Of a DNA stretch of 64,000 nucleotides, positions 3,043-36,099 are shown piece by piece; within the stretch, counting starts at the first letter, position 1, and each line of letters opens with the position of its first letter. Source of the stretch: Escherichia coli (lineage in GTDB: Bacteria; Pseudomonadota; Gammaproteobacteria; Enterobacterales; Enterobacteriaceae); NCBI RefSeq assembly GCF_003991155.1, contig NZ_CP031293.1, one strand, 5' to 3'. Below the pieces are notes generated by a model. That model was given only the letters and a program-made list of their open reading frames with translations, ran no database searches and was not told the DNA's origin. The position numbers and the translations under genes were made by a program.

Positions 3043-3051
3043 GCAATTCTC

Positions 3052-3597
<546 letters not shown>

Positions 3598-12932: not shown

Positions 12933-13012
12933 TTTTTATATATTCCCTGTGGCAAATATTGCTAAACAATGCCCGGGGATTAATTTTTATTACTCACGGA
13001 AAGATTTAAATA

Positions 13013-15819: not shown

Positions 15820-15837
15820 CAATTAAGGCTGCAATCA

Positions 15838-18524: not shown

Positions 18525-18527
18525 CAA

Positions 18528-19898
18528 ATGGCTCGTTCTTTTAAAGTCTTATCGCCAACGGCAATCCTCGGGTATGGATTCCCGGAAGAGAGCTTCCGCA
18601 AAGCGATGGCAGAATCGCCCGATCTGATCGCCGTTGATGCAGGCTCTTCCGATCCTGGCCCCCACTACCTCGGAGCGGGCAAACCGTTTACCGATCGCGC
18701 AGGGGTCAAGCGCGATCTGCGCTATATGATCACCGCAGGCGTGCAAAATAATATACCGGTGGTGATCGGAACAGCTGGCGGTTCTGGTGCCGCACCACAC
18801 CTGGAGTGGTGCCGAGAAATAATTCATGAGATTGCCCGGGAAGAGCGACTCGTGTTCTCGATGGCGCTGATCCCGGCAGACGTTGACAAAGCCATCGTCC
18901 ACCAGGCGCTGGATAACGGCAAAATCACGGCGCTGGATTTTGTCCCGCCGTTAACCCACGACGCGATTGACGAAAGTACGTATATCGTTGCGCAAATGGG
19001 CATCGAACCCTTCCAGCGGGCGCTGAAAGAAGGCGCGCAAGTGGTGCTGGGCGGGCGCGCTTACGACCCGGCCTGCTTTGCTGCGCTCCCGATCATGCAA
19101 GGCTTTGATGAAGGTCTGGCGCTGCATTGTGGGAAAATCCTTGAATGCGCGGCAATCGCCGCAACGCCCGGCTCAGGCTCTGACTGTGCGATGGGCATCA
19201 TTGATGACAACGGCTTTACGCTGAAGACATTTAATCCGAAGCGTAAATTTACCGAAACGTCAGCGGCTGCACACACACTGTATGAGAAATCCGATCCCTA
19301 CTTCCTGCCTGGACCTGGCGGCGTGTTGAACCTGAAAGGCTGCACATTTAAAGCGGTCAATGACGGCGAAGTGTACGTCAGCGGTTCTAAGCATGAAGAA
19401 ACGCCGTATGCCCTGAAACTGGAAGGTGCGCGACGGGTGGGCTTCCGCTGTCTGACCATCGCAGGAACGCGCGACCCGATCATGATCGCCGGGATCGATA
19501 AAATCATCGATGAAGTCAAAACCAGCGTTTCACGTAACCTGTCGCTCGACGATGACAGCATTCGCATCAATTTCCACCTGTACGGCAAAAACGGGGTGAT
19601 GGGCGACCATGAACCGATGCAAACTGCCGGGCATGAGCTGGGGATTGTCCTTGATGTAGTTGCACCGACCCAGGAAATTGCCAATAGCGTTTGCTCGCTG
19701 GTGCGCTCTACCATGCTGCACTACGGCTATGAAAACCGCATCGCTACCGCAGGCAATCTGGCGTTCCCGTTCTCCCCTTCTGATATCCAGGGCGGGCCGG
19801 TATACGAATTTTCCATATATCACCTGATTGAAGCCAACGACGCTCTGCGTTTTGATTTCCATATTGAACAGGTGACGCCAGAAGGAGTTCAGGCATGA
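18528..19898 (+). CDS. Conserved hypothetical protein, 456 aa; family not confidently assigned (size and pairing reminiscent of AtuA-like DUF1446 proteins)
   Basis: ORF starting 3 nt after the mal stop with an AAGGA SD; no cofactor motif recognised by eye. The DUF1446 suggestion is from memory of domain architecture, not from alignment. Confidence 0.7.
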   Translation: MARSFKVLSPTAILGYGFPEESFRKAMAESPDLIAVDAGSSDPGPHYLGAGKPFTDRAGVKRDLRYMITAGVQNNIPVVIGTAGGSGAAPHLEWCREIIHEIAREERLVFSMALIPADVDKAIVHQALDNGKITALDFVPPLTHDAIDESTYIVAQMGIEPFQRALKEGAQVVLGGRAYDPACFAALPIMQGFDEGLALHCGKILECAAIAATPGSGSDCAMGIIDDNGFTLKTFNPKRKFTETSAAAHTLYEKSDPYFLPGPGGVLNLKGCTFKAVNDGEVYVSGSKHEETPYALKLEGARRVGFRCLTIAGTRDPIMIAGIDKIIDEVKTSVSRNLSLDDDSIRINFHLYGKNGVMGDHEPMQTAGHELGIVLDVVAPTQEIANSVCSLVRSTMLHYGYENRIATAGNLAFPFSPSDIQGGPVYEFSIYHLIEANDALRFDFHIEQVTPEGVQA

Positions 19899-20212
19899 AA
19901 CAGTCAATTGTCTCACTGGCGCAAGTCATTCGTTCGAAAAATGCCGGACCTTACGAACTGGTTTTAGATATTTTATTTAAAACGAAAGAAAACTATGAGC
20001 GAGTTAAATCATCAGGGCAATTAACCCCAGAACTGATTGCGCGCTTATATCATGTTGAACCTGACTTTATTCACCGTATTGTCTGGTTTGATCCTTCTAA
20101 CGCAGTAAAAATCGTCATGCCACGAGATATTATCTCCGGGAATGTAGGTGACAATGATGTCTATGGTGCACAGCAACATGCACCTTTATTAAATATGAGT
20201 TTCGATTTGTAA
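19895..20212 (+). CDS. Conserved hypothetical small protein, 105 aa (possible DUF4387-like partner of the preceding gene)
   Basis: ORF whose ATG overlaps the stop of the 456-aa gene (ATGA), implying translational coupling; no motifs recognised by eye. Confidence 0.6.
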   Translation: MKQSIVSLAQVIRSKNAGPYELVLDILFKTKENYERVKSSGQLTPELIARLYHVEPDFIHRIVWFDPSNAVKIVMPRDIISGNVGDNDVYGAQQHAPLLNMSFDL

Positions 20213-20295
20213 AAATCCGAATACTTTTAGCCAACTGACATCCCGTCACTTATTGCAGTTCAACACTTCAGCTATTTGTAAGGTTGTAATAGCAG

Positions 20296-20327
20296 GTAGA
20301 TGCCTGAATCTCTATTCAGGCATCTAC
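20296..20327 (+). other. Perfect 14-bp inverted repeat (gtagatgcctgaat-ctct-attcaggcatctac) in the 160-nt gap before the transporter gene; intra-operon terminator/attenuator or operator candidate
   Basis: Seen directly; followed by a T-rich tract (ttctcctgattctgattt). Confidence 0.4.
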
Positions 20328-20372
20328 TTCTCCTGATTCTGATTTATCGCCGTGCACCTGATGGAGGAAAAA

Positions 20373-21653
20373 ATGAAGAAAATAAGTTTAACCACGATGA
20401 TTCTTTTGGCGCTGGTACTTGGAATGATTATCGGCGTAGTGCTCAATAACACTGCTTCACCGGAAACCGCAAAACTCTATGCGCAAGAAATATCGATATT
20501 CACGACGATTTTCTTACGACTGATAAAAATGATTATCGCTCCGTTAGTGGTCTCTACCCTGGTGGTAGGTATAGCTAAAATGGGAGATGCCAAAGCCCTT
20601 GGTCGTATTTTTTCTAAAACACTCTTTTTATTTATTTGCGCCTCATTGCTGTCAATTGCCTTAGGCTTGATAACGGTAAATTTCTTCATGCCAGGCACAG
20701 GAATTAATTTTGTTGCACACGGTGCCGAAACCACCGGAGTGGTCGCGTCAGAACCCTTTACACTAAAAGTATTTATTTCGCATGCTTTCCCCACCAGCAT
20801 TGTCGATGCCATGGCACACAATGAAATTTTGCAAATCGTGGTGTTCTCAATTTTCCTCGGCTGTAGCCTGACGGCGATTGGTGAGAAAGGCAGCGCCATC
20901 GTTCACGCCTTAGATTCGCTGGCACATGCCATGTTAAAGCTCACTGGCTACGTCATGCTCTTCGCTCCCCTGACCGTATTCGCCGCTATTTCAGCATTGA
21001 TTGCTGAACGAGGACTGGCAGTTATGGTGAGCGCCGGGATCTTTATGGGTGAATTTTATTTCACCATGTTGTTACTTTGGGTGCTGCTTATCGGTCTGGC
21101 CATCGTTTATGTCGGCCCCTGCATCAGACGCCTGACCCGTGCCCTTTCGGAACCCGCCCTGCTGGCATTTACCACATCCAGTTCTGAAGCGGCTTTTCCG
21201 GGAACGCTTGAAAAACTGGAGCAATTTGGCGTTTCCCCCAAAATTGCCAGCTTTGTCTTACCCATTGGCTACTCATTTAATCTCGTTGGATCAATGGCCT
21301 ACTGCTCCTTCGCCACAGTTTTCATCGCCCAGGCCTGCAATATCCATTTATCCATCGGTGAGCAAATCACCATGCTGTTGATCCTGATGTTGACCTCGAA
21401 AGGAATGGCTGGCGTACCACGCGCCTCAATGGTGGTTATCGCCGCCACGCTCAACCAGTTCAATATTCCGGAAGCGGGGCTGATCTTGCTGATGGGCGTT
21501 GATCCGTTCCTTGATATGGGGCGTTCCGCGACAAACGTCATGAGCAACGCAATGGGCGCTGCGATGGTGAGTCGGTGGGAAGGCGAACATTTCGGCGAGG
21601 GCTGTCGGGGTAAAGCATTAAAACCCAATGAATCGAACGTTGCTCTGCCCTGA
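20373..21653 (+). CDS. Dicarboxylate/amino acid:cation symporter (DAACS family, GltP/GltT-like); putative glutamate or C4/C5-dicarboxylate uptake
   Basis: ORF-track frame begins 20352; start set to MKKISLTT with a GGAGG SD. Multi-TM protein with the family-typical layout; family call by overall resemblance to GltP/DctA-type carriers. Confidence 0.8.
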   Translation: MKKISLTTMILLALVLGMIIGVVLNNTASPETAKLYAQEISIFTTIFLRLIKMIIAPLVVSTLVVGIAKMGDAKALGRIFSKTLFLFICASLLSIALGLITVNFFMPGTGINFVAHGAETTGVVASEPFTLKVFISHAFPTSIVDAMAHNEILQIVVFSIFLGCSLTAIGEKGSAIVHALDSLAHAMLKLTGYVMLFAPLTVFAAISALIAERGLAVMVSAGIFMGEFYFTMLLLWVLLIGLAIVYVGPCIRRLTRALSEPALLAFTTSSSEAAFPGTLEKLEQFGVSPKIASFVLPIGYSFNLVGSMAYCSFATVFIAQACNIHLSIGEQITMLLILMLTSKGMAGVPRASMVVIAATLNQFNIPEAGLILLMGVDPFLDMGRSATNVMSNAMGAAMVSRWEGEHFGEGCRGKALKPNESNVALP

Positions 21654-21760
21654 GGGGGATCTTAAGCAATCAGAAGCCAATGACTACGCATTTTTATAAG
21701 CCGGATCATGAAGTTAGACGGCAATTAAGTAAAACTAACGTTTAAGGTGAAAAGTGAAAT

Positions 21761-23413
21761 ATGTCCAAACCATTTATCTGGCAAGAACCGTTTCTACAAA
21801 ATAAAGACGGTACAGAATATACATTAATTAGCGATCAACATATTACAGTAACGGAATTAGACGGCGAAGAAGTGATAAAAATCGCTCCTGAAGCATTAAC
21901 GCTGCTTGCCCGGCAGGCATTTTATGAAGCCTCTTTTTTCTTACGTTCCGCTCATTTGCAACAGGTCGCCAGCATTCTTAACGATCCGCACGCCAGTAGT
22001 AATGATAAATACGTTGCGTTGCAGTTATTACGTAATGCTGAAGTCTCAGCAAAAGGGGTATTACCCAACTGTCAGGATACCGGCACCGCAACTATTGTTG
22101 CCAGTAAAGGGCAACAGATATGGACCGGAGGTAACGACGCTGAAGCCTTAAGCAAAGGCATTTACACCACTTTTCAGGAAAATAATCTGCGCTTTTCACA
22201 AAATGCGCCACTGGATATGTATACCGAAGTCAATACGCAAACCAATCTACCGGCGCAGATTGATATCAGCGCCGTCGCTGGTGATGAGTACCATTTTCTC
22301 TGTATTAATAAAGGGGGCGGCTCTGCCAATAAAGCCGCGCTTTATCAGGAAACCAAATCCCTATTGCAACCAGAAAAACTGACCGCATTTTTAATCGAAA
22401 AAATGAAATCGCTGGGCACCGCTGCCTGCCCGCCTTACCACATCGCCTTTGTCGTCGGAGGGCTTTCAGCCGATCAAACCTTAAAAGTTGCCAAGCTGGC
22501 CTCAACGAAATATTACGACAATTTGCCCACCAGCGGAAACGAGCAAGGACAAGCATTCCGTGATATTGAGCTGGAAAAAGTATTGCTCGAGGCCAGTCAG
22601 CAATTTGGTATTGGTGCGCAATTTGGGGGTAAATATTTCGCTCATGATATTCGCGTCATTCGTCTGCCGCGTCACGGTGGCTCTTGCCCGATAGCTATGG
22701 CGCTCTCCTGTTCTGCGGATCGCAATATCAAAGCAAAAATTAACAAGCACGGTATCTGGCTGGAAAAACTCGAACACAATCCGGGGCAATATATTCCAGC
22801 CTCACTGCGGGAAGAAAATCACGCGCAACATGTACAGCTGGATCTAAACCGTCCGTTGCGTGACGTGATGCAGGATCTCGCCAGATTACCGGTAGGCACC
22901 CGCGTGTCGTTAAGTGGTCCCATCGTAGTGGCGCGCGATATCGCCCACGCCAAAATAAAAGCGCGGCTGGATAGCGGCGAACCGATGCCGGATTACCTGA
23001 AGCATCATATTGTCTATTACGCTGGCCCGGCGAAAACACCGGAGAACATGGCCTGCGGTTCACTGGGTCCAACCACGGGCGGTCGAATGGACGGTTATGT
23101 CGATACCTTCCAGGCGGCTGGCGGCAGTCTGGTGATGTTATCGAAAGGTAACCGCAGCCAGCAGGTCACCGATGCCTGTCACAAACATGGCGGCTTCAAT
23201 CTGGGGAGTATTGGCGGTGCAGCTGCGTTACTGGCGCAAGAATATGTCAAAAGTCTGCGTTGCCTGGAATACCCGGAGCTGGGTATGGAAGCGGTGTGGA
23301 TGATGGAAGTGGAAAATTTACCCGCATTCATCCTGGTAGATGATAAAGGCAATAATTTCTTTAGTCAGTTTGAGCAGCAACACCGCTGCGCCAGTTGCCC
23401 TGCGGGACATTAA
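21761..23413 (+). CDS. fumD: Class I (Fe-S) fumarate hydratase paralogue; probable mesaconase/fumarase FumD of the methylaspartate pathway
   Basis: 550-aa ORF with FumA/FumB-like length and sequence, located in the glm-mal operon. A class I fumarase paralogue encoded with glutamate mutase/methylaspartase in E. coli O157:H7 was reported to act as mesaconase; orthology here is inferred from context. Confidence 0.8.
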
Positions 23414-23422
23414 GGAAAATGA

Positions 23423-24025
23423 ATGGAAGCGCGAATTTCAACTGAACGGCATGTGCAGCGCCAGCAGAAATTGAAGGAACAGGTCGATACGCGCGTCGCG
23501 GCGGCGATAGAGAAAAAAGGGATTTTGATTGTTTTCACCGGCAACGGCAAAGGGAAATCCACTGCCGCGTTTGGTACTGTGACGCGCGCGGTGGGTCATG
23601 GCAAAACGGTGGGGGTTGCGCAGTACATCAAGGGGCAATGGGACAACGGCGAATACAACCTTCTCCAACCGCTGGGGGTTGAGTTTCATATTATGGGAAC
23701 CGGTTTTACCTGGGAGACACAGAACCGGCAAGCGGATATCGACGCGGCGAAAGAGGTCTGGTCGGAAAGCAAACGGATGCTGGCTGACAAGCGTTACGAC
23801 TTAGTGGTGCTTGATGAGCTGACCTATATGCTGGCTTACCATTATCTGGACACCGAAGAAGTGATCGCTTCTCTGCAAAACCGCCCGGCACAACAAAGTG
23901 TCATTGTCACCGGACGCGGTTGCCACAGTCAGATATTAAAAATGGCGGATACGGTCAGCGAAATCCGCCCCGTCAAACATGCTTTTGATAACGGCATTCA
24001 GGCGCAGCCGGGTATCGACTGGTAA
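23423..24025 (+). CDS. Corrinoid adenosyltransferase (CobA/BtuR family, cob(I)alamin adenosyltransferase)
   Basis: 200-aa ORF with P-loop GNGKGKSTAAFG and BtuR/CobA-like length; plausible supplier of adenosylcobalamin for glutamate mutase. Confidence 0.8.
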   Translation: MEARISTERHVQRQQKLKEQVDTRVAAAIEKKGILIVFTGNGKGKSTAAFGTVTRAVGHGKTVGVAQYIKGQWDNGEYNLLQPLGVEFHIMGTGFTWETQNRQADIDAAKEVWSESKRMLADKRYDLVVLDELTYMLAYHYLDTEEVIASLQNRPAQQSVIVTGRGCHSQILKMADTVSEIRPVKHAFDNGIQAQPGIDW

Positions 24026-24028
24026 TAA

Positions 24029-24056
24029 CTGCGCCTGGCATCCCGCCAGGCGCAGG
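24029..24056. terminator. Convergent terminator hairpin (ctgcgcctgg-N8-ccaggcgcag) between the cobA-like and LysR genes
   Basis: 10-bp perfect inverted repeat followed by gtttta on the plus strand; seen directly. Confidence 0.55.
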
Positions 24057-24058
24057 TT

Positions 24059-24964
24059 TTACATCTCCTGCGGTACGACCGATTTCGCCAGCAACCATTC
24101 ACGAAATTGCTGCAAGTGCGGTGAGTCAGACTTCTCTTCCTGCCACGTCATAATAAAACGATTACCGGTACGAATAGGCACATCACAGGGAATCACCATA
24201 TCGCCACTATCCAAATCATGTTGAATAGCGAACCGTGGTAACAGCGCCACGCCGAGATTAGAGCGCACGGCGGCAATCAGCATTGAAAGCAAATCGAAAC
24301 GTGGTCCGTTATTGACCAGCGGACTGCTAACGCCAGATAAAGCAAACCACTCTTCCCAGCCAGTAATACGGGTGCTTTGATGCAGAAGTGGTAACTCAGT
24401 AAGCAGTTCTGCCACTGACAGTTTTTGATCGGACATTGCAAGCAAACTGCCGCTGCATACCGGCAAAATCTCCTCATCAAAGAGATATTCTACTTCCGCC
24501 CAGGGCGCGCAAAAATTTTCGCGCATAATGACAGCATCGTACTCCCGATTAAGAAAATCGCCGTTATTAGCTAAAGAATGAATATTAACAATAATATCGG
24601 GATGTAACTTTGTGAATTCATGTAAATTTGGGATTAACCAGTGGGTACTAAAAGTAGGATTAACGGCAAGTTCAATAACCTGAACCGTAGGCTGCCAGGT
24701 CATAATGGTATTGGTATCGCGTTCCAGCTTATTTAATGTTTCTTTTACTATCCCCAGGTAATACTTCCCTGCATCATTAAGAAAAATGCGTTTTTTAGAG
24801 TGTGAAAATAACGGAGTACGTAAAAATTCCTCCAGCGCACTTACTTGTCTGAATACTGCACTTTGGGTTAACGCTAACTCCTCTGCCGCTCTGGTATAAC
24901 TTTCATGACGTGCGACGACCTCAAAAGTCACCAGCAGTTCCGTTTTAGGTATTTTTCCTCGCAT
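24059..24964 (-). CDS. LysR-family transcriptional regulator
   Basis: 301-aa ORF with N-terminal wHTH (...TFEVVARHESYTRAAEELALTQSAVFRQVSALEE...) and LysR substrate-binding-domain length; AGGGAAGG SD. Confidence 0.85.
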   Translation of the reverse strand: MRGKIPKTELLVTFEVVARHESYTRAAEELALTQSAVFRQVSALEEFLRTPLFSHSKKRIFLNDAGKYYLGIVKETLNKLERDTNTIMTWQPTVQVIELAVNPTFSTHWLIPNLHEFTKLHPDIIVNIHSLANNGDFLNREYDAVIMRENFCAPWAEVEYLFDEEILPVCSGSLLAMSDQKLSVAELLTELPLLHQSTRITGWEEWFALSGVSSPLVNNGPRFDLLSMLIAAVRSNLGVALLPRFAIQHDLDSGDMVIPCDVPIRTGNRFIMTWQEEKSDSPHLQQFREWLLAKSVVPQEM

Positions 24965-25234: not shown

Positions 25235-26905
25235 TTATTTTTGATTTATAGCATATCCTTCTAAGAATTTTTGCGAAGCTGCAATATCTGGGGTAAAGAC
25301 CCGATCCTGGTCGACAAACGGCACGACTTTTCTGTATTCGGTAAACATTGCTTTGGTGGATTTCCCTAATGCCAGTTGTGGATCGGCCTGCAACCGTAAA
25401 TCGAGAGCCTGTGCGGAATGCATCAGTTCAATGCCATAAATCACGTTCAGATTATCGACAACCTGTTTCAATCTTCTGGCCGCGTGGTCATTATTGGCAC
25501 CGGTATCTTCTATACCTCCGGCAACCGGTTGAATATCGAAAGAAACCGGGTTAGCGAGATCGACATTTTCCGCATGCAGCGCAACAAACGGGATATGTAA
25601 TGAACCGAAGCCATGACCTTTATTACCTGCTGCCGACAGGAAGCGTGACAAACCGGTAAAGTGATCATCTTCAAGATGCAGCGAGCGGCGCATACTGTTA
25701 TGTGAAACATGCACTAACGCCACGGTCAGACGCTGGGTGGCAAGCGCAACCGGTAACGATTCGAAATTCGCCGTCGGGAAGATCCCACCGCTGATTGCCC
25801 CATCTTTAACAAAATATTGCGCGACCTGACTGGAGTCCTGATACGCTTTGTCTGCATTCAGCACGGTTGCCGGGTTGTCATCGGAACTGTTGATCTGCAC
25901 GGTAATGGTATCTTCAGCATCGCGCAACGCGCGCATTGCCTCAGAAATGGTATACACCGTCGTTCTGAACGATAACGGATCCTGCAATGCACGTTTGTCA
26001 TGCTTATGCCATAAATAAGAACCACTTAACGCATCGCGAATCTCTTTAGCGGAATCAGCCAACTGCGGGAAAGGACGCACGGCGATCGACTGCGGCAGTA
26101 CCGGCGCGACATTGCCATTCAACGCTTCCAGACTCATAGCGAAAACCACCGGGCTGACATTCAGCAACTGACGTGCCGAACGAACAGCTTCGATAGCGTA
26201 GGCTGTCCCGACGCTGTTGTTCGATAAAATCGCCAGCATATCTTTACCCTGCGGTACCAGTGGCTTAAGTCCCACTTTCGCCAGCGCGTCACCACCGCTC
26301 ATTTGCACGCCATTTACTCGGGCTTTCCATTCCCCCATCATCACCAGACCAACGTGCGAAGCGAGCATAATATCCGCTGCGCCGATACTTCCCCGCACCG
26401 GAATTAACGGTGTAACGCCGCGATTAATAAATTCGGCATACAACTCGGCAATATAAGGCTGTGCGCCGGTTTGCCCATGCAGCATGGTATTTAAACGTAA
26501 TACCATTGAAAGGCGTGCCAGATAATCCGGTAACATCGGACCAACGCCCGCAGAATGGGCGCGCAGCGCGGCAGCATTAAATTTTTTCGACGCGTCAATC
26601 ACCTCAGGCGTTAAATTTCCTTTGGCATCAAATATGGGCTGATCTTTATTTAGCCCCACGCCCACGGTTAAGCCATAAACAGGCGTACCTGAATGCGCGG
26701 CAGTCATCACCAGATCATAACTTTTTTCCATGCGCTCCATGGCGTTCGACGCGATTTTGACGCCGTTATCACCTAATGCAATTGACCAGGCCTGGTCAAT
26801 GGAAAGATGTTCGCCATCCAGCGTAATGGTTGATTTCGCCATCGCAATGGAGCAAACGCTCCAGAGCACAACGGTGACAGTGACTCTTCGTATCAATCCT
26901 TTCAT
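25235..26905 (-). CDS. Histidine ammonia-lyase (HAL/PAL) family protein with N-terminal signal peptide and apparently degenerate MIO motif
   Basis: 556-aa ORF. N-terminus MKGLIRRVTVTVVLWSVCSIAMA-KS looks like a Sec signal peptide; the rest aligns by eye with HutH (YGLTVGVG, ...PVRGSIGAADIMLASH...), but the canonical GASGDL (Ala-Ser-Gly MIO precursor) reads GAADIM. Confidence 0.7.
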   Translation of the reverse strand: MKGLIRRVTVTVVLWSVCSIAMAKSTITLDGEHLSIDQAWSIALGDNGVKIASNAMERMEKSYDLVMTAAHSGTPVYGLTVGVGLNKDQPIFDAKGNLTPEVIDASKKFNAAALRAHSAGVGPMLPDYLARLSMVLRLNTMLHGQTGAQPYIAELYAEFINRGVTPLIPVRGSIGAADIMLASHVGLVMMGEWKARVNGVQMSGGDALAKVGLKPLVPQGKDMLAILSNNSVGTAYAIEAVRSARQLLNVSPVVFAMSLEALNGNVAPVLPQSIAVRPFPQLADSAKEIRDALSGSYLWHKHDKRALQDPLSFRTTVYTISEAMRALRDAEDTITVQINSSDDNPATVLNADKAYQDSSQVAQYFVKDGAISGGIFPTANFESLPVALATQRLTVALVHVSHNSMRRSLHLEDDHFTGLSRFLSAAGNKGHGFGSLHIPFVALHAENVDLANPVSFDIQPVAGGIEDTGANNDHAARRLKQVVDNLNVIYGIELMHSAQALDLRLQADPQLALGKSTKAMFTEYRKVVPFVDQDRVFTPDIAASQKFLEGYAINQK

Positions 26906-26955
26906 TGTGTTTCCTTATCATGATGAGTTTAACAACGGGTTACTGCGACAACGTT

Positions 26956-27906
26956 TTAATTTGTTCTATCTGTTTTCCCCCGCCGGACAATACTGGTCAC
27001 CAGGCGAGCGGCAACTTTCGCAGTTAAATTATCGCGGTCCAGGTCCGGGTTAAGTTCGGCAATATCCGCAGCAATCAACTTCTCGCTACCGGCGATTAAA
27101 TTCACAATGGCTTCAGTAATATTTAACGGCACGCCTAACGGTGATGGAGCAGAAACACCGGGCGCCTGATAACCTGGTAAAACATCGAGACAAATCGTTA
27201 AATAAATGGCGTCACAAGCCTGAATATCTGCCGAGAGCGCATTAGCGATCTCATGCAAACCACGTTCAAATTGCAGAGATTCGTCCAGCCAATAACGCAC
27301 ACCGAGACAATCAGCGCGATCAAATAACGCCTGAGTATTGGCAAAACGACTTATTCCCAGCACGCGATAATGAAACGGTTTGCCATGCTGCGCGTTCCAC
27401 TCTTGCATCTGACGAAACGGCGTACCTGAATTGGCTTGTTCCGCCATCCGTAAATCAAAATGCGCGTCAAGGTTCACAATCAGTAACCGCTGAATATCCG
27501 GACGCGACTGCATAATCCCCTGAAATGTTCCCCACGCCACTTCATGACCGCCCCCCAGAACCACCGGTAAACTGCCGCGCGCAATGGCTGTAGATACGTT
27601 AGCCGCCAGACGATTTTGTGCGGATTCCAGCGCGTGGTCCTCGCTTTGTACATCGCCCATATCGAAAATAGCGCCTTCACAGAGCACTGGCATATTTCCC
27701 AACATGCTGCGCAACGCGCCCGGTCCGCCTGCTGCACCCGCTCGCCCATCATTACGTTGCACTCCGTCATCAACGGCAAAACCAATCAGCGTACAACCGC
27801 CGTGGCTTTGTTCACTAAACGGTTGCACATGCTGATGCCAGCGAGTGCTGATGCCGGTTTCCTGCGAGTCAACACGCCCACTCCACGGCAAAAATGTTTG
27901 CTTCAT
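26956..27906 (-). CDS. hutG: Formimidoylglutamase (arginase-family HutG)
   Basis: ORF-track frame extends to 27945; start set to MKQTFLPW, whose ATG overlaps the hutI stop by 1 nt. Arginase-fold motifs (GGGHEVAWG, NLDAHFDLR, DVLPGYQAPGVSAPSPLG) resemble Salmonella/Klebsiella HutG. Confidence 0.85.
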   Translation of the reverse strand: MKQTFLPWSGRVDSQETGISTRWHQHVQPFSEQSHGGCTLIGFAVDDGVQRNDGRAGAAGGPGALRSMLGNMPVLCEGAIFDMGDVQSEDHALESAQNRLAANVSTAIARGSLPVVLGGGHEVAWGTFQGIMQSRPDIQRLLIVNLDAHFDLRMAEQANSGTPFRQMQEWNAQHGKPFHYRVLGISRFANTQALFDRADCLGVRYWLDESLQFERGLHEIANALSADIQACDAIYLTICLDVLPGYQAPGVSAPSPLGVPLNITEAIVNLIAGSEKLIAADIAELNPDLDRDNLTAKVAARLVTSIVRRGKTDRTN

Positions 27907-29117
27907 TACCAACTCCTTTTTCCGCCGACAATAAGCCCCTGGCAAGGCTGATGCCCAAACCAGTAAGCCAGTTCACGTGGATGATTAAGATCCCAGACCG
28001 CCATATCCGCCCGTAATCCCGGTGCAAGTTCACCCCGGTCAATAAGTCCAAGTGCCTTTGCCGCATTACGCGTAACGCCCTGAACGGCTTCCAGCGGCGT
28101 CATGCGAAACAGCGTACAGGCCATATTGATCATCAATGGCAATGACATATTGGGAGACGTTCCGGGATTATGGTCCGTGGAGATAGCAATCGGCACACCT
28201 GCGGCCCGCAGAGCGACAATCGGCGGCAGATGGGTTTCGCGCAGGAAGTAATAAGCACCGGGAAGCAAAACCGCCACTGTTCCAGCCGCTTTCATGGCGG
28301 CGATCCCCGACTCGCTCAGGTACTCCAGATGATCGCAGGAGAGTGCAGAAAACGCCGCTGCCAGCGCCGCGCCTTGCTGGTCAGAAAGCTGTTCGGCATG
28401 CAGTTTTACAGGTAATCCATAGCTTTGCGCTTTACTGAAAACGCGCCGTACCTGCTCTGGAGTAAAGGCGATGTTTTCACAAAAAGCATCAACTGCATCA
28501 ATCAGCCCCTGTTCATGCAACACGCACATCCAGTCGCAAAGCGCCGTAATGTAATCATCACTGCGCCCGGCAAACTCTGGCGGCAGGCTGTGCGCCCCGA
28601 GAAACGTAGACTGAATATGTAACCCGGTAGATTGCTGCAAGCGGCGGATCACGCGTAAACAACGTGCTTCATCTTCCAGCGTTAAGCCATAACCCGATTT
28701 GATTTCAAGCGTACTGACGCCTTCACGTTGCCAGTTTCGCAGTCGCTGCGCCGCCAGTTCAAACAACTGTGTTTCGCTGGCTGCCCGCGTGGCATTAACC
28801 GTAGATAAGATCCCGCCGCCCGCTCTGGCGATATCTTCATAAGCCACGCCTTGCAACCGCATCTCAAACTCGTTCGCCCTCTGGCCGCCATACACCAGAT
28901 GTGTATGACAATCCACCAGACCGGGTGTCAGCAACTTACCCTGTAGATCGTGTTCCTCTGTAATATCAGCCGTCAGTTCACGGGGGATCTGCGTGGCCTT
29001 CCCAAGCCAGACAATCGAGTCACCACGGCTGATTAATGCCCCCTTTTCAATCACTCCCCAATCGTTAGCGGAAAGCGTCGCCAGCGTGGTATTTCGCCAG
29101 AGCGTTAATGCACTCAT
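27906..29117 (-). CDS. hutI: Imidazolonepropionase
   Basis: ORF-track frame extends to 29150; start set to MSALTLWRN (ATGA overlap with the hutD stop). Amidohydrolase motif DCHTHLVYGG and overall collinearity with HutI. Confidence 0.85.
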   Translation of the reverse strand: MSALTLWRNTTLATLSANDWGVIEKGALISRGDSIVWLGKATQIPRELTADITEEHDLQGKLLTPGLVDCHTHLVYGGQRANEFEMRLQGVAYEDIARAGGGILSTVNATRAASETQLFELAAQRLRNWQREGVSTLEIKSGYGLTLEDEARCLRVIRRLQQSTGLHIQSTFLGAHSLPPEFAGRSDDYITALCDWMCVLHEQGLIDAVDAFCENIAFTPEQVRRVFSKAQSYGLPVKLHAEQLSDQQGAALAAAFSALSCDHLEYLSESGIAAMKAAGTVAVLLPGAYYFLRETHLPPIVALRAAGVPIAISTDHNPGTSPNMSLPLMINMACTLFRMTPLEAVQGVTRNAAKALGLIDRGELAPGLRADMAVWDLNHPRELAYWFGHQPCQGLIVGGKRSW

Positions 29118-29704
29118 AAGGATTTTTCCCCTCGTAGATAATAAAGCCACCAGCCCGCCAGCTCACCGACGGAGACTTTCTTCCGTGGTACGAAACGCCA
29201 GGGCCTGCCATCAGGTGCAACCAGCCATAACAACATATTTGCCGCGACAAACACCCTTTTCTTGCCGCTTATCCACTCCCCTTCACACAGCGTGAACAGG
29301 CCCGCTTGCGCAAGTGACGGAGGACGCCAGTCAACGGCACTTTGCACCCGCAACATCCCCGCATCGCCTTCCCGCGCCATAACATTCAGATCGCGAACCC
29401 CGCCGCCCAGCAGCTGGCAATCAGGCATAGCTTCTCCAGGGAAAATTAAGGCGGGATCGTGACGTTGCAGGTTGATGATCGAATCGGCAAACGTTAGCTT
29501 CACCCCTTCCCCGTCGAGAATCGCGAGGCCACGAACCACGCCAGGCCACGCTGAAAAAGAGCCATCCTGACTGACATTCGCCATACTGATGCGCAACAAC
29601 CAGTTTTCATCATCGGGCCAGGCAAGCAGCTGTCGGGTAAACCCCCCGCCGTTGCGCCACGGTTGCAGCGGCTTATCCATTGCAGAAATCAGCATCGGTT
29701 CCAT
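29114..29704 (-). CDS. hutD: HutD/Ves-family protein
   Basis: 196-aa ORF with the PWRNGGG motif I associate with HutD/Ves; located within the hut cluster. Confidence 0.7.
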   Translation of the reverse strand: MEPMLISAMDKPLQPWRNGGGFTRQLLAWPDDENWLLRISMANVSQDGSFSAWPGVVRGLAILDGEGVKLTFADSIINLQRHDPALIFPGEAMPDCQLLGGGVRDLNVMAREGDAGMLRVQSAVDWRPPSLAQAGLFTLCEGEWISGKKRVFVAANMLLWLVAPDGRPWRFVPRKKVSVGELAGWWLYYLRGEKSL

Positions 29705-29705
29705 A

Positions 29706-31115
29706 TTAAGACTCGGGATAAATCGTATAAGCAGGAACGCAGGTGGTGCGTTTGGCCCACGGGTAATAGATAACGGCGGTAATTAACAAGCCGACAATCC
29801 AGGAGATATCCGCCCCATCCATCAGGACAGAAATGGGTCCCTGATACAGTTTTTGATTCAGGAAGGGGATCTGCACCAACACGCCTACGCCATAGCACGT
29901 CAAAGCGGTTTTGTTATACGCGCCATAACGCCCTTCCGGGGTATAAAGTGCCGGAATATCGGTTTTACCTTGTGAGATGAAGTAGTAGTCGATGAGATTA
30001 ATGGCGCTCCACGGCACAAATACCGTCAACAGCAGCAGAACGAAGTTTTTGAAATTATTCAAAAAATCTGCGCTTGCCGCCAGCGCGACGACCATCGACA
30101 ACAGCACGAACCCTACAACGTAGGCAGCACGAACACGCTGTGAAACCTGACTGCGATTATTAAAGGCGCTGACGGTCGCCAGAATCGACATAAAGCCACC
30201 GTAGGCATTCAAACAGTTCACCGTCAGTTTGCCGCAAACAATCACCGTATAAATCAGAATGGCGAAGGTGGGTCCGGCTAACTCACCCATAAAACCAACC
30301 TGATCCTTCAGGAAGTTAGCACCACAGGCCGCAACAAGCACGCCAAACGTCATGGCACATTGCGCGCCAAGCGTGGTTCCCAGAAAGGTGGCAAAGAAGA
30401 TTGATTTTGCTGGCGTATCAGAGGGTAAATAGCGGGAATAATCAGAGGCGTAAGGGGCAAACGTTAATTGCCATCCGGCAGAGAGAGCAATCGTTAATAA
30501 AAAGACCGACAGACTAAATGGCTTTTGACCAAATGCCGCAGCCACATCGTAGTGACCGCTAAGTTGAGTGGCCAGGTAAATAAACCCCAGAATACTTAAT
30601 ATCCCTGCAACACGGCCAACGACGTGAATAAGTTTATAACCGACCAATGCGATCATCGCGGTCAGCATGCCGAAAATAATAATTCCGGTCGATGCCGATT
30701 CGAAACCAAATATCCGGTTAATCGCCTGACCGGATAATACTGTACCCGTCGCGGCAAATCCAAGGTACATAATAATCACCATCAGTAACGGTAGCGCCGC
30801 TCCTTTAACGCCAAAGCGGATACGACTGGAGATCATCTGGGGTAATCCCAGCTTTGCCCCCTGCGACGAGTGCAATGCCATTACTGCACCACCAATAATA
30901 TTACCGATTAATAAACCAATTATTGCTGACATGGCTTCGGAGCCAAAAATAATCGCTAACGCGCCGTCCACCACAGCGGTAATTTGTAAGTTAGCACTTA
31001 GCCATAAAGTAAACTGACTGGATGGCGAGCCGTGGCGAGCAGACTCAGGAACGGCGTTAATCGTATTTGATTCTAATACTGGCTTTTTACTGCGGATAGG
31101 GCTGCTTGATTCCAT
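29706..31115 (-). CDS. NCS1-family permease (cytosine/purine/uracil/thiamine/allantoin permease family); putative urocanate/histidine-related transporter
   Basis: ORF-track frame extends to 31160; start set to MESSSPIRSK (AGGAGA SD 7 nt upstream). Multi-TM protein with NCS1/CodB-like layout; substrate inferred only from the hut context. Confidence 0.75.
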   Translation of the reverse strand: MESSSPIRSKKPVLESNTINAVPESARHGSPSSQFTLWLSANLQITAVVDGALAIIFGSEAMSAIIGLLIGNIIGGAVMALHSSQGAKLGLPQMISSRIRFGVKGAALPLLMVIIMYLGFAATGTVLSGQAINRIFGFESASTGIIIFGMLTAMIALVGYKLIHVVGRVAGILSILGFIYLATQLSGHYDVAAAFGQKPFSLSVFLLTIALSAGWQLTFAPYASDYSRYLPSDTPAKSIFFATFLGTTLGAQCAMTFGVLVAACGANFLKDQVGFMGELAGPTFAILIYTVIVCGKLTVNCLNAYGGFMSILATVSAFNNRSQVSQRVRAAYVVGFVLLSMVVALAASADFLNNFKNFVLLLLTVFVPWSAINLIDYYFISQGKTDIPALYTPEGRYGAYNKTALTCYGVGVLVQIPFLNQKLYQGPISVLMDGADISWIVGLLITAVIYYPWAKRTTCVPAYTIYPES

Positions 31116-31278
31116 GAAAAAGTCTCCTGCAAAATGAGAGGTCATTTTTTGAAACAGCAATAGAGGGTCGGGAGATATTTCTCTCGACGATGTAAAAATA
31201 TTTTTTGATAATTATTGTTATACAGGCGAATTATTCTCCGCCTGTATTAGCGCAAATATTAAATGACGGCGTTAATAT

Positions 31279-32976
31279 TTAGCGAATCATCGGTAATTTC
31301 AGACCATAGTTTTTGGCACATTCAATTGCCGCTTCATAACCCGCATCCGCATGACGCATAACCCCGGACGCACAGTCATTCACCAGCACACGCGCCAGAC
31401 GTTTTTCGGCTTCTTCGCTACCATCGGCAACAATAACCATCCCGGCGTGTTGTGAATACCCCATCCCGACGCCGCCGCCATGATGCAGGGATACCCACGT
31501 TGCTCCCCCTGCAGTGTTGAGCAAACCGTTGAGCAACGGCCAGTCAGAAACCGCATCACTGCCATCAAGCATGCTTTCGGTTTCGCGGTTCGGGCTGGCG
31601 ACAGAACCGGTATCAAGATGATCGCGCCCAATCACAATCGGTGCTTTTAGTTCACCGTTGCGCACCATTTCGTTGAATGCCAGCCCCGCCAGGTGACGCT
31701 CACCAAGCCCCAGCCAGCAAATACGTGAAGGAAGTCCCTGGAAGGCAATGCGCTCGCGCGCCATATCCAGCCAGCGATGCGTCAGTACGTTATTGGGGAA
31801 CAACTCTTTAATTTTGGCATCAGTTTTATAGATATCTTCCGGGTCGCCAGACAGCGCCACCCAACGGAATGGACCTTTGCCTTCACAAAACATTGGACGA
31901 ATATAAGCCGGAACAAAGCCCGGGAAATCAAAGGCATTTTGCAGACCTTCGTTGAAGGCCACCTGGCGGATGTTGTTGCCATAATCGACAACCGGGATCC
32001 CCATCGCCTGGAAGTCCAGCATCCCCTGAACATGTGCGACGCAGCTCTGTGCCGCTTCTTTTTGCAATCTGGCGTGTTGCTGTGGATCCTGCTGTGCAGC
32101 GCGCCATTGTTCTACGCTCCAGCCCATCGGTAGGTAGCCATAAACCAGATCGTGAGCGGAAGTCTGGTCGGTCACCAGATCCGGCTTGATCGCCCCCTGA
32201 CGTGCACGTTTCACCAGTTCAGGAACAATTTCCGCCGCATTGCCCAACAGCGCGATTGAAACAGCGTCTTTGCGCTCAGTATGGTATTTAATCAGCGCCA
32301 GTGCATCATCGAGATCTTTCGCTTGTTTATCGACATAACGGGTACGCAGACGGAAGTCGATGCTACTTTGCTGGCACTCGATATTTAATGAACACGCCCC
32401 CGCCAGAGTCGCCGCCAGCGGTTGTGCACCGCCCATACCACCTAGCCCTGCGGTCAGGATCCATTTTCCACTCAGCGAATTGTTGTAGTGCTGACGACCC
32501 GCTTCAACAAAGGTTTCGAACGTTCCCTGCACAATGCCCTGACTACCGATGTAGATCCACGAGCCAGCGGTCATCTGGCCGTACATGAACAGACCTTTAC
32601 GATCCAGTTCATTGAAATGATCCCAGTTGGCCCATTGCGGTACCAGGTTAGAGTTGGCAATCAATACGCGCGGCGCATCGGTATGCGTTTTAAACACGCC
32701 TACGGGTTTACCGGACTGAACCAGCAGTGACTCATCAGCTTCCAGATTTTTCAGTGATTCAAGGATTTTGTCAAAACACTCCCAGTTACGTGCCGCACGA
32801 CCAATACCACCATACACCACCAGATGCTGTGGATTTTCGGCAACGTCGGGATCAAGGTTGTTCTGCAACATCCGATAGGCAGCTTCGATCTGCCAGTTTT
32901 TGCAGTGCAGCTGCGTACCGTGTGGCGCATGGATTACACGGCTGGTATCAATACGCGGGTCTGAAGGCTTACTCAT
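31279..32976 (-). CDS. hutU: Urocanate hydratase (urocanase)
   Basis: ORF-track frame extends to 33075; start set to [11 protein letters not shown] (AGGAG SD). Near-collinear with canonical HutU (...[17 protein letters not shown]..., ...[15 protein letters not shown]..., ...[11 protein letters not shown]...). Confidence 0.9.
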
Positions 32977-33733
32977 GAATCTTCTCCTGTTACTTGATAA
33001 AATTAAACGCTGTAATCGGTCAGAAAAAACGAACGAATGAATATAGAAACGGTTTCTATAATTCCCGTTTATCATTTTGTATTATTAATTCATTTAGTGA
33101 ATATTGTTTGTCGTGGTATATTCACTATGAATATAAATTCAAAACCACCAACGCGTTGTATGCGAATTCAATATGCTTAATTTAACTTGTCGAAAAAGTG
33201 ATATTGTTGGCAAAATATTTTCTAATTTGAACATATGAATATGATGAGATTGCAAGATGTCAGTAATTTAATTATATGAGAAATGCGTTAATAACGACCA
33301 GATATTAGCGTAACAACAGGTGTTCCGACACCACACAGTGCGCATAACACAATGATATTTAAAATAAGATCTTCATTATTCGTCATAAAGACATGTTTTA
33401 TTATCATTAATAATCCATTTGTTTTCATCCCACTTTTGATAATTAAAAAACGGCAACAATGGATAGTTACCCGACGTAAAAACAGGCGTAAAAATAAATC
33501 TTAAAATATATCCACTGGAAATTATCATTTTTCATATTTTACAATCTGGCGTCGATAACTGACCCCTTTTATAACACCCCCGTTTGTTAATAGTCTTTTT
33601 TATCTTGTATTGATCGTCATTGCTGCATACACTACGCGCGTTTTCTTTCCCTTTTGCTGGCTGCTGACCGGAAAGACAAAATTACCCTCGCAATAAAGGG
33701 GGTTGTTTAACGTCTATATTTCAGGACAGCGTT

Positions 33734-35131
33734 ATGCATCATCTTTCAAGGCTTGATAAAGCCTTTCTGCGCAAAGGGATCCAACTTTCCCGCGCCAACA
33801 ATATTGTTTCATTATGTCGTCCATCAGGAGCCAGTGCCCACGTACTGCTGCCGGACGAACTGCCGCTGGAAGAAAAAGCAGTGACACAACTGCTTGATTT
33901 TGCAGAAGTGAAGATACCAGACCATCCAGGTTACGTACGCCAGACCTGTGCGACGCCAGATTTTCATCCCGGCAATGGCGTCCCCGTTGGCGCGGTAGTC
34001 GCCTCTACGCCGGATTTAGTCATTCCTGCGGCCATCGGCACCGATATTTCTTGTGGCATGCGGCTGCTGACGACCGGATTAACACTTGAGCAAGCCGAAG
34101 CGAATAAAGAAATAATCACTCAGCGGTTAACACAAGTGTTACTGCAAAATGAGCGCGATGTTCCGTTATCCGCACGAGCGTTCACCGCGCTTTTTGATGG
34201 CGGACCGGCAGATTGCATGTCGGCCTTGCCATCAGCAGGTCTCTGGACACGTACAAATATCCCCCGAATGACGCAAGAGATTGACCGCTGCATTGGGCTT
34301 AACGAGCATAACAGTCATTCGCGTTATGCCCCACCCGCCCTACTGGTAACGGACCGCCCATTACTCCGCGATCCTTGTCTTGGTACGCCGGGTTCAGGTA
34401 ATCATTTTATTGAACTTCAGGTGGTTGATAGCGTGGTTGATCGCCATGTTGCCTGGCAACAAGGGCTGAAAACGGGCGATATTGTGGTGATGATCCACAG
34501 TGGATCGCGAGATGTTGGCTTTTACGTCGGAAGACGCTGGATGGATCGCGCCCGTGCTGAATGGCCCACCGGACATAAACATCCACAAAGCGGGTTATAT
34601 GGCCTGGCAGGCGGACTGGCGGAGGAATATCTACAAGCGATGGGAATGGCGGCGCGTTACGCGTGGTTAAATCGCGTCACAATTGCCGAAATGGTGCGCG
34701 TATGTCTTGCCAATCTCTTTCATCAGGACAATTCGCATCTGGTGGTGGATGTGCCGCATAACATCATCCTTCGCGAGCATGAAATGAATATTCATCGCAA
34801 AGGTGCAACACCGGCACGCGCGGGCAATCTGGCGTTAATCCCCGGTTCAATGGGCGATTATTCGTGGCTTGCAGTCGGTTGCGGCAACCCGGAGTGGCTG
34901 TGGTCTTGCAGTCACGGAGCAGGACGCAGCCAGCGTCGGCAGGCCATGCACTCACGCGCGACTGAAGAGTCAACGTTGCCGTGGCAATGCGTCACATTGC
35001 GCGAAGAACGGCGTATTGAAGAAGCGCCAGCTGCTTATAAAGATATTGGTCCGGTTATCGAAGCCCAACAAGAGGCCGGATTAATTCATCCAGCGGTTAG
35101 ATTCCGACCGTGGTTAACGTTTAAGGCATAA
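33734..35131 (+). CDS. RtcB-family RNA ligase paralogue with about 35-55 residue N-terminal extension
   Basis: 465-aa ORF with RtcB signatures by eye: IPAAIGTDISCGMRLL, GSGNHFIELQ, MIHSGSRDVG, ALIPGSMGDYSW, SCSHGAGRSQRR, AYKDIGPVIEAQ. Confidence 0.85.
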   Translation: MHHLSRLDKAFLRKGIQLSRANNIVSLCRPSGASAHVLLPDELPLEEKAVTQLLDFAEVKIPDHPGYVRQTCATPDFHPGNGVPVGAVVASTPDLVIPAAIGTDISCGMRLLTTGLTLEQAEANKEIITQRLTQVLLQNERDVPLSARAFTALFDGGPADCMSALPSAGLWTRTNIPRMTQEIDRCIGLNEHNSHSRYAPPALLVTDRPLLRDPCLGTPGSGNHFIELQVVDSVVDRHVAWQQGLKTGDIVVMIHSGSRDVGFYVGRRWMDRARAEWPTGHKHPQSGLYGLAGGLAEEYLQAMGMAARYAWLNRVTIAEMVRVCLANLFHQDNSHLVVDVPHNIILREHEMNIHRKGATPARAGNLALIPGSMGDYSWLAVGCGNPEWLWSCSHGAGRSQRRQAMHSRATEESTLPWQCVTLREERRIEEAPAAYKDIGPVIEAQQEAGLIHPAVRFRPWLTFKA

Positions 35132-35229
35132 AAAAAGGCCATCATATGATGGCCAACCATGTCGAAACCGACAGCCCTTCGCCATTCCTGTAGAGGGAAG
35201 CGGCGAGGGCTATTTCTTATTACAGATAT
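35132..35229 (-). ncRNA. sdhX: sucD 3'UTR, expected position of the SdhX (RybD) small RNA, ending in an intrinsic terminator
   Basis: About 98 nt between the sucD stop and a GGCCATCATATGATGGCC hairpin (35137..35154) followed on the minus strand by a U-run. SdhX is known to be processed from the sucD 3'UTR; its sequence was not verified here. Confidence 0.5.
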
Positions 35230-36099
35230 TTATTTCAGAACAGTTTTCAGTGCTTCACCGATATCCGCCAGGCTGCGAACGGTTTTCACGCCTGCGGCTT
35301 CCAGAGCAGCGAATTTCTCATCCGCAGTCCCTTTCCCACCGGCAATGATCGCACCTGCGTGACCCATACGTTTGCCTTTCGGCGCAGTCACACCAGCGAT
35401 GTAACCTACAACTGGCTTGGTAACGTGCTCTTTGATGTATGCAGCCGCTTCTTCTTCAGCGCTACCACCGATCTCACCGATCATCACGATCGCTTCGGTC
35501 TGCGGATCTTTTTCGAACATTTCGAGGATGTCGATAAAGTTAGAGCCAGGGATCGGGTCGCCGCCGATACCAACACAGGTCGACTGACCGAAACCGTAAT
35601 CCGTGGTCTGTTTAACCGCTTCATAGGTCAGTGTACCGGAACGGGAAACGATACCCACTTTACCCGGTTTGTGAATGTGACCAGGCTGGATACCGATTTT
35701 GCATTCACCCGGAGTGATAACGCCCGGGCAGTTCGGGCCGATCATGCGAACGCCCGCTTCATCCAGTTTCACCTTCACGGTCAGCATATCCAGCGTCGGG
35801 ATGCCTTCAGTGATGGTGATAATCAGTTTGATGCCTGCATCAATAGCTTCCAGAATGGAGTCTTTGCAGAACGGTGCTGGTACGTAGATAACAGAAGCGG
35901 TAGCGCCAGTAGCAGCAACAGCTTCACGCACGGTGTTGAACACCGGCAGGCCGAGGTGGGTGGTGCCGCCTTTACCTGGGGTTACGCCGCCAACCATTTT
36001 AGTGCCGTATGCAATAGCCTGTTCTGAGTGGAAAGTCCCCTGGCTACCGGTAAAGCCCTGGCAGATAACCTTGGTGTTTTTATCAATTAAAATGGACAT
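35230..36099 (-). CDS. sucD: Succinyl-CoA synthetase alpha subunit
   Basis: 289-aa ORF matching E. coli SucD. Confidence 0.95.

Follow-up and report, generated by a model that had tools for sequence, protein, structure and literature searches.

Does an RtcB-family gene that lies apart from rtcA, rtcR and prfH in an Escherichia coli genome encode a working RNA ligase, and is that ligase one of the two RtcB proteins discussed for this species or another one? This question is raised by a 64-kb stretch of an E. coli genome (64,000 nucleotides (nt) of contig NZ_CP031293.1; hereafter "the window", to which coordinates refer unless stated otherwise), in which an open reading frame (ORF) of 465 amino acids (aa) with an ATG start occupies 33734..35131 on the plus strand. 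In an identical genome region, RefSeq places a coding sequence with the same coordinates (WP_000546467.1, "RtcB family protein"), and strain 2016C-3878 (NZ_CP029747.1), like many other genomes, matches window positions 33000-35300 with 100% identity. A sequence-only reading of the window had described the gene as an orphan RtcB paralogue; this description is supported by the analyses presented here, with corrections on the size of an N-terminal extension, on the identity of the terminator next to the gene and on the secondary origin of the abutment between gene and terminator. We consider it likely that the product, here called the third RtcB, is an active GTP/Mn2+-dependent 3'-phosphate/5'-hydroxyl RNA ligase of a distinct, stand-alone RtcB subfamily. 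It is an uncharacterised member of a known enzyme family and has a generic annotation in RefSeq.

Active site and fold

The Pfam family PF01139 (RtcB) matched the 465-aa protein with an E value of 8.6e-95, residues 63-464 covering positions 7-425 of the 426-position model. The catalytic residues are intact (D76, H78, D104, C107, N223, H224, H255, H342, H394, R398 and K464), and H394, the acceptor of guanosine monophosphate (GMP), sits in SCSHGAGR, an instance of the (S/C)HGAGR motif; family match and catalytic residues thus both bear out the RtcB hallmarks claimed in the sequence-only reading. A pairwise alignment with RtcB1 of E. coli K-12 placed C107 opposite C78, N223 and H224 opposite N167 and H168, H255 opposite H185, H342 opposite H281 and H394 opposite H337. 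HMMER aligned D76 and H78 with D65 and H67 of Pyrococcus horikoshii RtcB, D104 and C107 with D95 and C98, N223 and H224 with N202 and H203, H255 with H234, H342 with H329 and H394 with H404. The metal ligands are D95, C98, H203, H234 and H329 in the P. horikoshii enzyme and C78, H168, H185 and H281 in E. coli RtcB; the two-metal site, GTP binding and the His-GMP intermediate are residue roles known from established RtcB biochemistry. In a further pairwise alignment, H394 was paired with H294 of RtcB2, the residue that Tian et al. mutated to abolish RtcB2 activity (PMC9304027).

We also aligned 56 sequences representing the clade of the third RtcB, its sister groups, distant RtcBs, RtcB1 and RtcB2. 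Invariant positions in this alignment were D76, H78, D104, C107, N223, H224, F225, H255, H342, N343, H394, R398, R402 and K464. A loss of conserved metal-binding Cys or His residues, which the sequence-only reading had allowed for, was not observed, as the ligands and the nucleotidyl-accepting His are invariant in all 56 sequences. Moreover, every family-wide invariant column is kept in the third RtcB, and no residue change suggesting a lost ligation step was seen.

Sequence matches in the Protein Data Bank (PDB) were RtcB/RTCB ligases only (Thermus thermophilus, 2.6e-42; P. horikoshii, 1.9e-40; human, ~5e-34). An AlphaFold2 model, computed with the 56-sequence alignment as input, reached a predicted local distance difference test score (pLDDT) of 95.6 and a predicted template-modelling score (pTM) of 0.94. 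All 16 significant Foldseek matches of this model in PDB were RtcB/RTCB structures, the top match being the P. horikoshii RtcB-GMP/Mn2+ complex (4dwq_A; template-modelling (TM) score 0.82), and human RTCB structures gave TM scores of 0.80-0.81. Overall, these data indicate a functional-looking enzyme with an intact active site, the sequence of which shows no departure from the known RtcB design.

Relationship to RtcB1, RtcB2 and other RtcBs

The third RtcB is 31% identical to RtcB1 and 29% identical to RtcB2, and RtcB1 and RtcB2 are 28% identical to each other; the three E. coli RtcBs are thus approximately equidistant. The only NCBIfam RtcB models matched were NF007153 and TIGR03073 (release_rtcB), both of the RtcB2 type, and the third RtcB scored below the cut-offs of both (205.6 bits versus a cut-off of 407 and 169 bits versus 271.8, respectively), as compared to 640.5 and 622.5 bits for the RtcB2 of the same genome. 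In a neighbour-joining tree, the third RtcB fell into its own clade, on a different major branch and far from RtcB1 and RtcB2. The closest sequences within this tight clade were those designated P0002, P0003 and P0005, and the clade adjoins Pseudomonas and Chitinivorax sequences within a mostly betaproteobacterial group. Taken together, these comparisons show that the protein is a third E. coli paralogue, which is not the orthologue of RtcB1 and falls outside the RtcB2 models.

The N-terminal extension of 35-55 residues that the sequence-only reading had attributed to the protein proved too large. The PDxH motif starts at residue 75 in the third RtcB, as compared to residue 47 in RtcB1 and residue 46 in RtcB2; the pairwise alignments begin at residue 43 of the third RtcB with residue 20 of RtcB1 and at residue 29 with residue 6 of RtcB2; and in the multiple alignment both RtcB1 and RtcB2 have a gap of ~24 residues opposite its extreme N-terminus. 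Other long RtcBs carry 55-80 residues ahead of PDxH, and P. horikoshii RtcB is ~10 residues shorter N-terminally (residue 41 of the third RtcB aligned to its residue 31). The N-terminal segment is conserved within the clade (consensus RLxKAxxRxGI) and was modelled as a helix and three strands. Judged from the alignments and the PDxH position, the N-terminal excess is about 24-28 residues, which is ordinary for long RtcBs and reflects the short form of RtcB1 and RtcB2. Much of the remaining length difference from these two proteins lies in a helical region at approximately residues 140-215; overall, the third RtcB is 57 residues longer than RtcB1, with ~24 extra N-terminal residues and the longer helical region.

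RtcB1, the product of the rtcBA operon under RtcR/sigma-54 control, has its Pfam family and catalytic residues in common with the third RtcB, and presumably its chemistry too, whereas the third rtcB comes without rtcA, rtcR or a convincing sigma-54 promoter. RtcB2 belongs to the rtcB2-prfH ribosome rescue/repair module of E. coli ATCC 25922 (PMC9304027, PMC9223846, PMC13166195); it shares the RtcB fold and active site with the third RtcB, as well as a variable presence among E. coli strains, but the third rtcB has no adjacent prfH and its product falls below both of the NCBIfam RtcB2 cut-offs. In length, N-terminal segment and helical insertion, the third RtcB is similar to the long-form RtcBs P. 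horikoshii PH1602, T. thermophilus TTHA1785 and human RTCB, although these archaeal, Thermus and metazoan proteins are only 20-27% identical to it in structural alignments. It has no Archease or other tRNA-ligase-complex subunit near its loci, and bacteria are not known to have tRNA introns that need splicing.

RtcBs have been divided into eight similarity clusters, with substrates assigned for three only (Tian et al. 2022, PMC9304027), which makes an uncharacterised substrate class plausible. These clusters provide a precedent for RtcBs that lack an assigned substrate, as do the Myxococcus xanthus RtcB paralogues (Maughan & Shuman 2015) for several RtcBs with differing activities in one bacterium. 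In the E. coli literature searched, only RtcB and RtcB2 are discussed, and the name "RtcB3" is used only for the Myxococcus protein.

The third rtcB can occur together with both other paralogues. Genome NZ_CP029747.1, which is identical to the window over the 2.3 kb compared, carries an intact rtcB2-prfH between yafP and pepD (positions 673,510-675,260 of that genome), ~510 kb from the third rtcB; a search for prfH elsewhere in the genome, as the sequence-only reading had suggested, thus found an intact prfH, but one paired with its own RtcB2. For each of the 40 best-matching genomes, a chimeric query composed of the third-rtcB locus, K-12 rtcB and the K-12 ykfJ-prfH remnant hit three distinct places, so that rtcB1 is evidently also present in genomes carrying the third rtcB. 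The same query matched a median of three places per genome across nearly all genomes, whereas the third rtcB is accessory (5% of genomes). In NZ_CP029747.1 (673510-675831), a "metal-dependent hydrolase" gene and then a small hypothetical one separate rtcB2-prfH from pepD; the region lacks yafNO and has a frameshift in the yafQ of dinJ-yafQ.

Relatives and gene neighbourhoods

Within the 64-kb window, tblastn (E ≤ 1e-3) with the partner proteins matched only the RtcB ORF itself and the annotation agrees, so that the sequence-only reading was right in placing no rtcA, rtcR or prfH alongside the gene and had missed none in this range. The window annotation likewise holds no Ro60 orthologue or Y RNA genes of the kind found in the Salmonella-type Rsr-Y-RNA-RtcBA operon. 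Rfam models at gathering thresholds revealed no Y RNA or other partner RNA for rtcB in the whole window, and no Y RNA, riboswitch, tRNA-like or other RNA family was matched at E ≤ 1 between 32900 and 35400.

The nearest relatives outside Escherichia are 57-67% identical to the third RtcB, 462-470 aa long and mainly from Betaproteobacteria and Pseudomonas. Among 8,000 candidates scored in a database search, 2,298 protein clusters (formed at 90% identity) reached E ≤ 1e-20; the best 120 of these 2,298 clusters were 58-94% identical to the third RtcB and mostly 462-470 aa in length. Relatives identified by name include Pseudomonas (including P. aeruginosa), Burkholderia, Ralstonia, Variovorax, Undibacterium, Chitinimonas and Chitinivorax. 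A search of a library clustered at 50% identity gave 39-46% identity for the next relatives of full length, and only 278 clusters reached E ≤ 1e-30.

The genes around these relatives differ from taxon to taxon. In P. aeruginosa the order is nuoN, a methyltransferase gene, rtcB and an AI-2E transporter gene; in Burkholderia an NmrA-like gene precedes rtcB; the enterobacterial-looking contig of P0005 has dmsABC, rtcB and a DUF3788 gene, and also pntAB; and the neighbourhoods on Nostoc and Eleftheria replicons are different again. An all-versus-all BLASTP comparison of the ORFs from 12 loci found that, apart from RtcB and its antisense shadow ORFs, no family was common to as many as three loci; a scan of contigs by peptide patterns, which were too specific, had yielded 8 loci. 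As the 12 loci come from differing taxa and have only rtcB in common, the stand-alone status is a property of the clade and not merely of the E. coli locus, in agreement with the orphan reading.

Phage genomes contained no close homologue of the third RtcB (all matches ≤ 31% identity), and neither did true plasmids, the close "plasmid" matches being a mislabelled 4.9-Mb E. coli chromosome and a 737-kb Eleftheria replicon. No PADLOC family was matched by the third RtcB at E ≤ 0.01. The Gac/Rsm-induced defensive proteins of P. aeruginosa reportedly include an RtcB homologue, without specification of the paralogue (PMC11888443).

Some individual loci showed further peculiarities. In Gilliamella bombi, the clade member has a second, shorter RtcB-like ORF (L015, 3815-5047, minus strand) ~3 kb away on its upstream side. 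The Snodgrassella alvi copy (L017, 7992-9399) is split into two overlapping ORFs, for which a frameshift or a single-cell assembly error is possible. Over 15.7 kb, a contig from a metagenome-assembled genome labelled Citrobacter sp. (L011) matches the window at 95% identity, and it carries an rtcB with 99.9% identity to the gene of E. coli strain S1-IND-02-A; the label Citrobacter probably arose from an error in binning or taxonomy.

Distribution and selection within E. coli

At a coverage of at least 80%, the third rtcB was detected in 289 of 5,426 complete E. coli genomes (5.3%), with nucleotide identities of 93.8-100%; it was always single-copy, chromosomal and at the edge of the methylaspartate (glutamate mutase) island. 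This island is present in 1,122 of the 5,426 genomes, 289 of which carry rtcB, and is absent from K-12. hutU was found in 144 genomes, which equals the number of genomes covering at least 80% of window positions 33000-35300.

Three arrangements were distinguished. In arrangement A, which is that of the window, the island is followed by a LysR-family gene, hutHGI-hutD-permease-hutU, rtcB and sdhX-sucD; in arrangement B, by the LysR-family gene, rtcB, mngB-mngA-mngR and sdhX-sucD; and in arrangement C, by the LysR-family gene, a deleted rtcB (remnants of 57 bp and 33 bp) and sdhX-sucD. As arrangement B also occurs in cryptic Escherichia (lineage L012), it is probably the ancestral one. A and B are homologous only over 33626-35126, which covers the ORF and 108 nt upstream. 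In one genome (L022, NZ_CP074701.1), the rtcB remnants at 3933-4033 lie next to sdhX with the same GCATAA junction as in the window; rtcB was therefore lost there by internal deletion, after the deletion of mngRAB described below.

Six alleles, including the one from the cryptic lineage, are all intact ORFs of 465 codons, with pairwise synonymous divergence (dS) of 0.058-0.27 and ratios of nonsynonymous to synonymous divergence (dN/dS) of 0.13-0.27. These values point clearly to purifying selection on the protein where it is present. The G+C content of the gene (53%; 49% at third codon positions) is host-like.

The larger surroundings of the gene in the window are as follows. The hut cluster (25235-33075, minus strand) is inserted in the former LysR-rtcB intergenic region and comprises HAL/hutH, hutG, hutI, a hutD-like gene, a cytosine/purine-type permease gene and hutU. 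The methylaspartate (glutamate mutase/mesaconate) island, at ~13980-24960, contains glmS, glmL, the gene for mutase subunit E and genes for methylaspartate ammonia-lyase, an AtuA-like protein, a DUF4387 protein, a dicarboxylate symporter, a class I fumarase and a LysR regulator, as well as cobO. Its cydA-side edge (~12000-13700) is low in G+C (0.34-0.38) and carries an IS1A-family transposase gene. Rfam matches to a seven-tRNA cluster and to the CpoB/ybgF RNA thermometer, at 1386-2086 and 3013-3151 (both minus strand), place the window in the tol-pal/cyd/suc region of the chromosome.

Upstream region

Between the hutU start (33075) and the rtcB ATG lie 658 bp of AT-rich DNA (G+C content 0.376 over 33000-33999). 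The part between 33076 and 33625, a spacer that separates hutU from the divergent rtcB, belongs to the hut-carrying arrangement alone and, save for a 96-bp patch at 33167-33262, is not homologous to the arrangement without hut. It contains ORFs of 46-50 aa only, none of them annotated, so the earlier observation that the 658 bp hold no ORF of suitable size still stands. The remaining 108 nt (33626..33733, plus strand) are conserved, travel with rtcB and are presumed to contain its promoter and 5' leader; an AGGA ribosome-binding site is located 7 nt ahead of the ATG, and two hairpins (UCUUUCC...GGAAAGA and ACCCUC...GGGGGU) are predicted. The fold of this leader is not significant (z = -1.74), and there were too few variants for covariation. 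As the block shows 1-3 differences among E. coli alleles, versus a dS of 0.06-0.18 in the ORF, it is likely to be a constrained promoter/leader. An 18-codon TTG-initiated ORF at 33654-33710, inside the block, is probably fortuitous.

A scan for sigma-70 promoters gave 5 sites as compared to 4.7 expected, none above threshold in the 108-nt block. Searches upstream of rtcB for an RtcR-type sigma-54 promoter (TGGCAC-N5-TTGC) found only matches with two mismatches, at chance frequency.

The 3' end and SdhX

The sequence-only reading had located the rtcB stop codon directly beside the hairpin that terminates the sdh-suc operon. The proximity is real: the stop codon TAA is at 35129-35131 and the hairpin, GGCCATCATATGATGGCC, at 35137-35154, 5 nt downstream. 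The identity of the hairpin could be refined, as it is the terminator, on the minus strand, of the small RNA SdhX, which is the 3' end of the sdh-suc transcript. The sdhX gene (35130..35229, minus strand; 3' untranslated region of sucD) agrees with annotated K-12 sdhX at 98 of 99 aligned bases, the lone difference being a G to A change in the terminator loop. The A-run containing the rtcB stop codon is complementary to the SdhX U-tract, and the convergent rtcB and sdhX thus touch. SdhX is a neighbour and has no part in RtcB function. K-12 backbone homology restarts exactly at 35131, which places rtcB at the sucD-side edge of the island, as had been claimed.

The abutment can be traced to a deletion junction at 35127..35131 (plus strand), where the last codon and stop read GCA TAA in the window and GGG TAA in the other arrangement. 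The alignment of the window rtcB with other alleles ends at base 1393 of 1398. In arrangement B the 3' end reads TTTAAGGGGTAA and is followed by unrelated sequence, while the 3' end in the window, TTTAAGGCATAAAAAAAGGCC, is the sequence found after the mngR stop codon in arrangement B and in K-12 (GATAAGCATAAAAAAGGCC). A comparison of window positions 35122-35136 with L019 (10385-10400 and 15995-16015) and K-12 revealed a common TAAG microhomology. These sequences indicate that mngRAB was deleted at TAAG, changing the last rtcB codon from Gly to Ala and providing a new in-frame TAA. Being a product of the mngRAB deletion, the contact of rtcB with the sdh-suc terminator is a chance outcome of the history of this lineage; a functional meaning of the abutment was considered and rejected, as the junction is limited to the hut-carrying lineage and its derivatives.

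Proposed function and alternative explanations

While family membership, fold, active site, separate clade, lack of a conserved partner and the selection signal were read directly from the comparisons above, the enzymatic activity is what we infer from them. By homology to characterised RtcBs, Asp104, Cys107, His224, His255 and His342 would form a two-metal site at which GTP guanylylates His394; GMP would then be passed to an RNA 3'-phosphate, which the enzyme would itself make, where needed, by hydrolysing a 2',3'-cyclic phosphate; and a 5'-OH end would attack the RNA(3')pp(5')G intermediate, so that the strand is resealed. The third RtcB would act alone, i.e., with neither a healing enzyme nor a ribosome-rescue partner, and probably has a substrate range different from that of either RtcB1 or RtcB2. 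Its most likely role, on which we can only speculate, would be to reseal stable RNAs, tRNA or rRNA, that stress or endoribonuclease toxins have cleaved. The gene itself would be an accessory one, inherited at the edge of the methylaspartate island, kept by purifying selection where present and often lost.

Several observations weigh against this view. Approximately 74% of the island-bearing genomes lack rtcB (289 of 1,122 carry it) and deletion remnants exist, which shows that the gene is dispensable in many settings and frequently lost, and whatever benefit it brings must depend on conditions. The sigma-70 and sigma-54 scans identified no promoter or regulator, no sequence feature of the protein points to a particular substrate, and in the literature searched we found no biochemical or genetic work on the third RtcB or its clade. 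A dedicated mobile defence role receives no support, as the protein has no counterpart in PADLOC, true plasmids or phages.

A more specific version of the proposal, which we put forward tentatively, is that the third RtcB is a self-sufficient ligase, induced via the 108-nt leader, for a lesion beyond the reach of both RtcB1 (tRNA) and RtcB2 (16S rRNA cut by colicin E3); candidate substrates could be a toxin-cleaved tRNA or a lesion in 23S rRNA or transfer-messenger RNA. It is rather unlikely that the protein is a redundant back-up of RtcB1 acting on the same broken tRNAs, with the gene persisting through weak selection or by hitch-hiking with the metabolic island. The catalytic residues are indeed the same as in RtcB1, the gene is frequently lost in E. 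coli, and the host genome evidently has rtcB1 as well, given the three places matched by the chimeric query in every listed carrier of the third rtcB. However, redundancy is difficult to reconcile with an identity of only 31% to RtcB1, with a deep separate clade held together at 57-67% identity across Beta- and Gammaproteobacteria, and with dN/dS values (0.13-0.27) that signal selection on the protein; moreover, RtcB1 and RtcB2, which are about as divergent from each other, have non-overlapping substrates in E. coli (PMC9304027). We regard as improbable that the main activity is the capping of polynucleotide ends, i.e., transfer of GMP onto DNA or RNA 3'-phosphate or 5'-phosphate ends, and not strand joining. 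Reports of end-capping exist for M. xanthus RtcB3 and, on DNA, for E. coli RtcB, and both ligation and capping activities vary between RtcB paralogues (review PMC10630183, citing Maughan & Shuman 2015 and Das et al. 2014). While the guanylylation site is intact, as capping would need, all family-invariant columns are also kept, with no residue change toward a loss of ligation, and DNA-repair genes were adjacent to rtcB in none of the loci examined.

Two further explanations seem very unlikely. A function tied to the hut or methylaspartate genes or to the adjacent LysR regulator, e.g. as a member of an island regulon, could account for the constant position of E. coli rtcB at the island edge and for its divergent orientation from the island LysR-family gene in arrangement B, which is seen also in cryptic Escherichia. 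This tie is largely refuted by the non-conserved context: the neighbours outside Escherichia are completely different, the hut operon separates LysR and rtcB in 144 genomes so that just the 108 nt upstream stay with rtcB, and ~830 genomes have the island without rtcB. Equally slight is the probability that the gene is a decaying remnant of horizontal transfer with no current function; its patchy distribution (5.3% of genomes) and the deletion remnants would fit such decay, but the alleles examined, including that of the cryptic lineage, are all intact and of equal length despite dS values up to 0.27, the dN/dS values are those of a constrained protein, the upstream leader is conserved and the G+C content of 53% is host-like. 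A distinct, stand-alone RNA ligase thus remains the explanation we favour.

If the third RtcB were merely redundant with RtcB1, the present results would amount to a routine refinement of annotation. E. coli strains that naturally carry the third paralogue along with an intact rtcB2-prfH and an inferred rtcB1 offer tractable genetics for an unassigned RtcB clade that is widespread outside E. coli. If the protein does serve a lesion of its own, some E. coli strains would have a third pathway, independent of the other two, for reversing RNA damage, and the same pathway would also exist in many Betaproteobacteria and pseudomonads, where its gene would be a common part of the chromosome.

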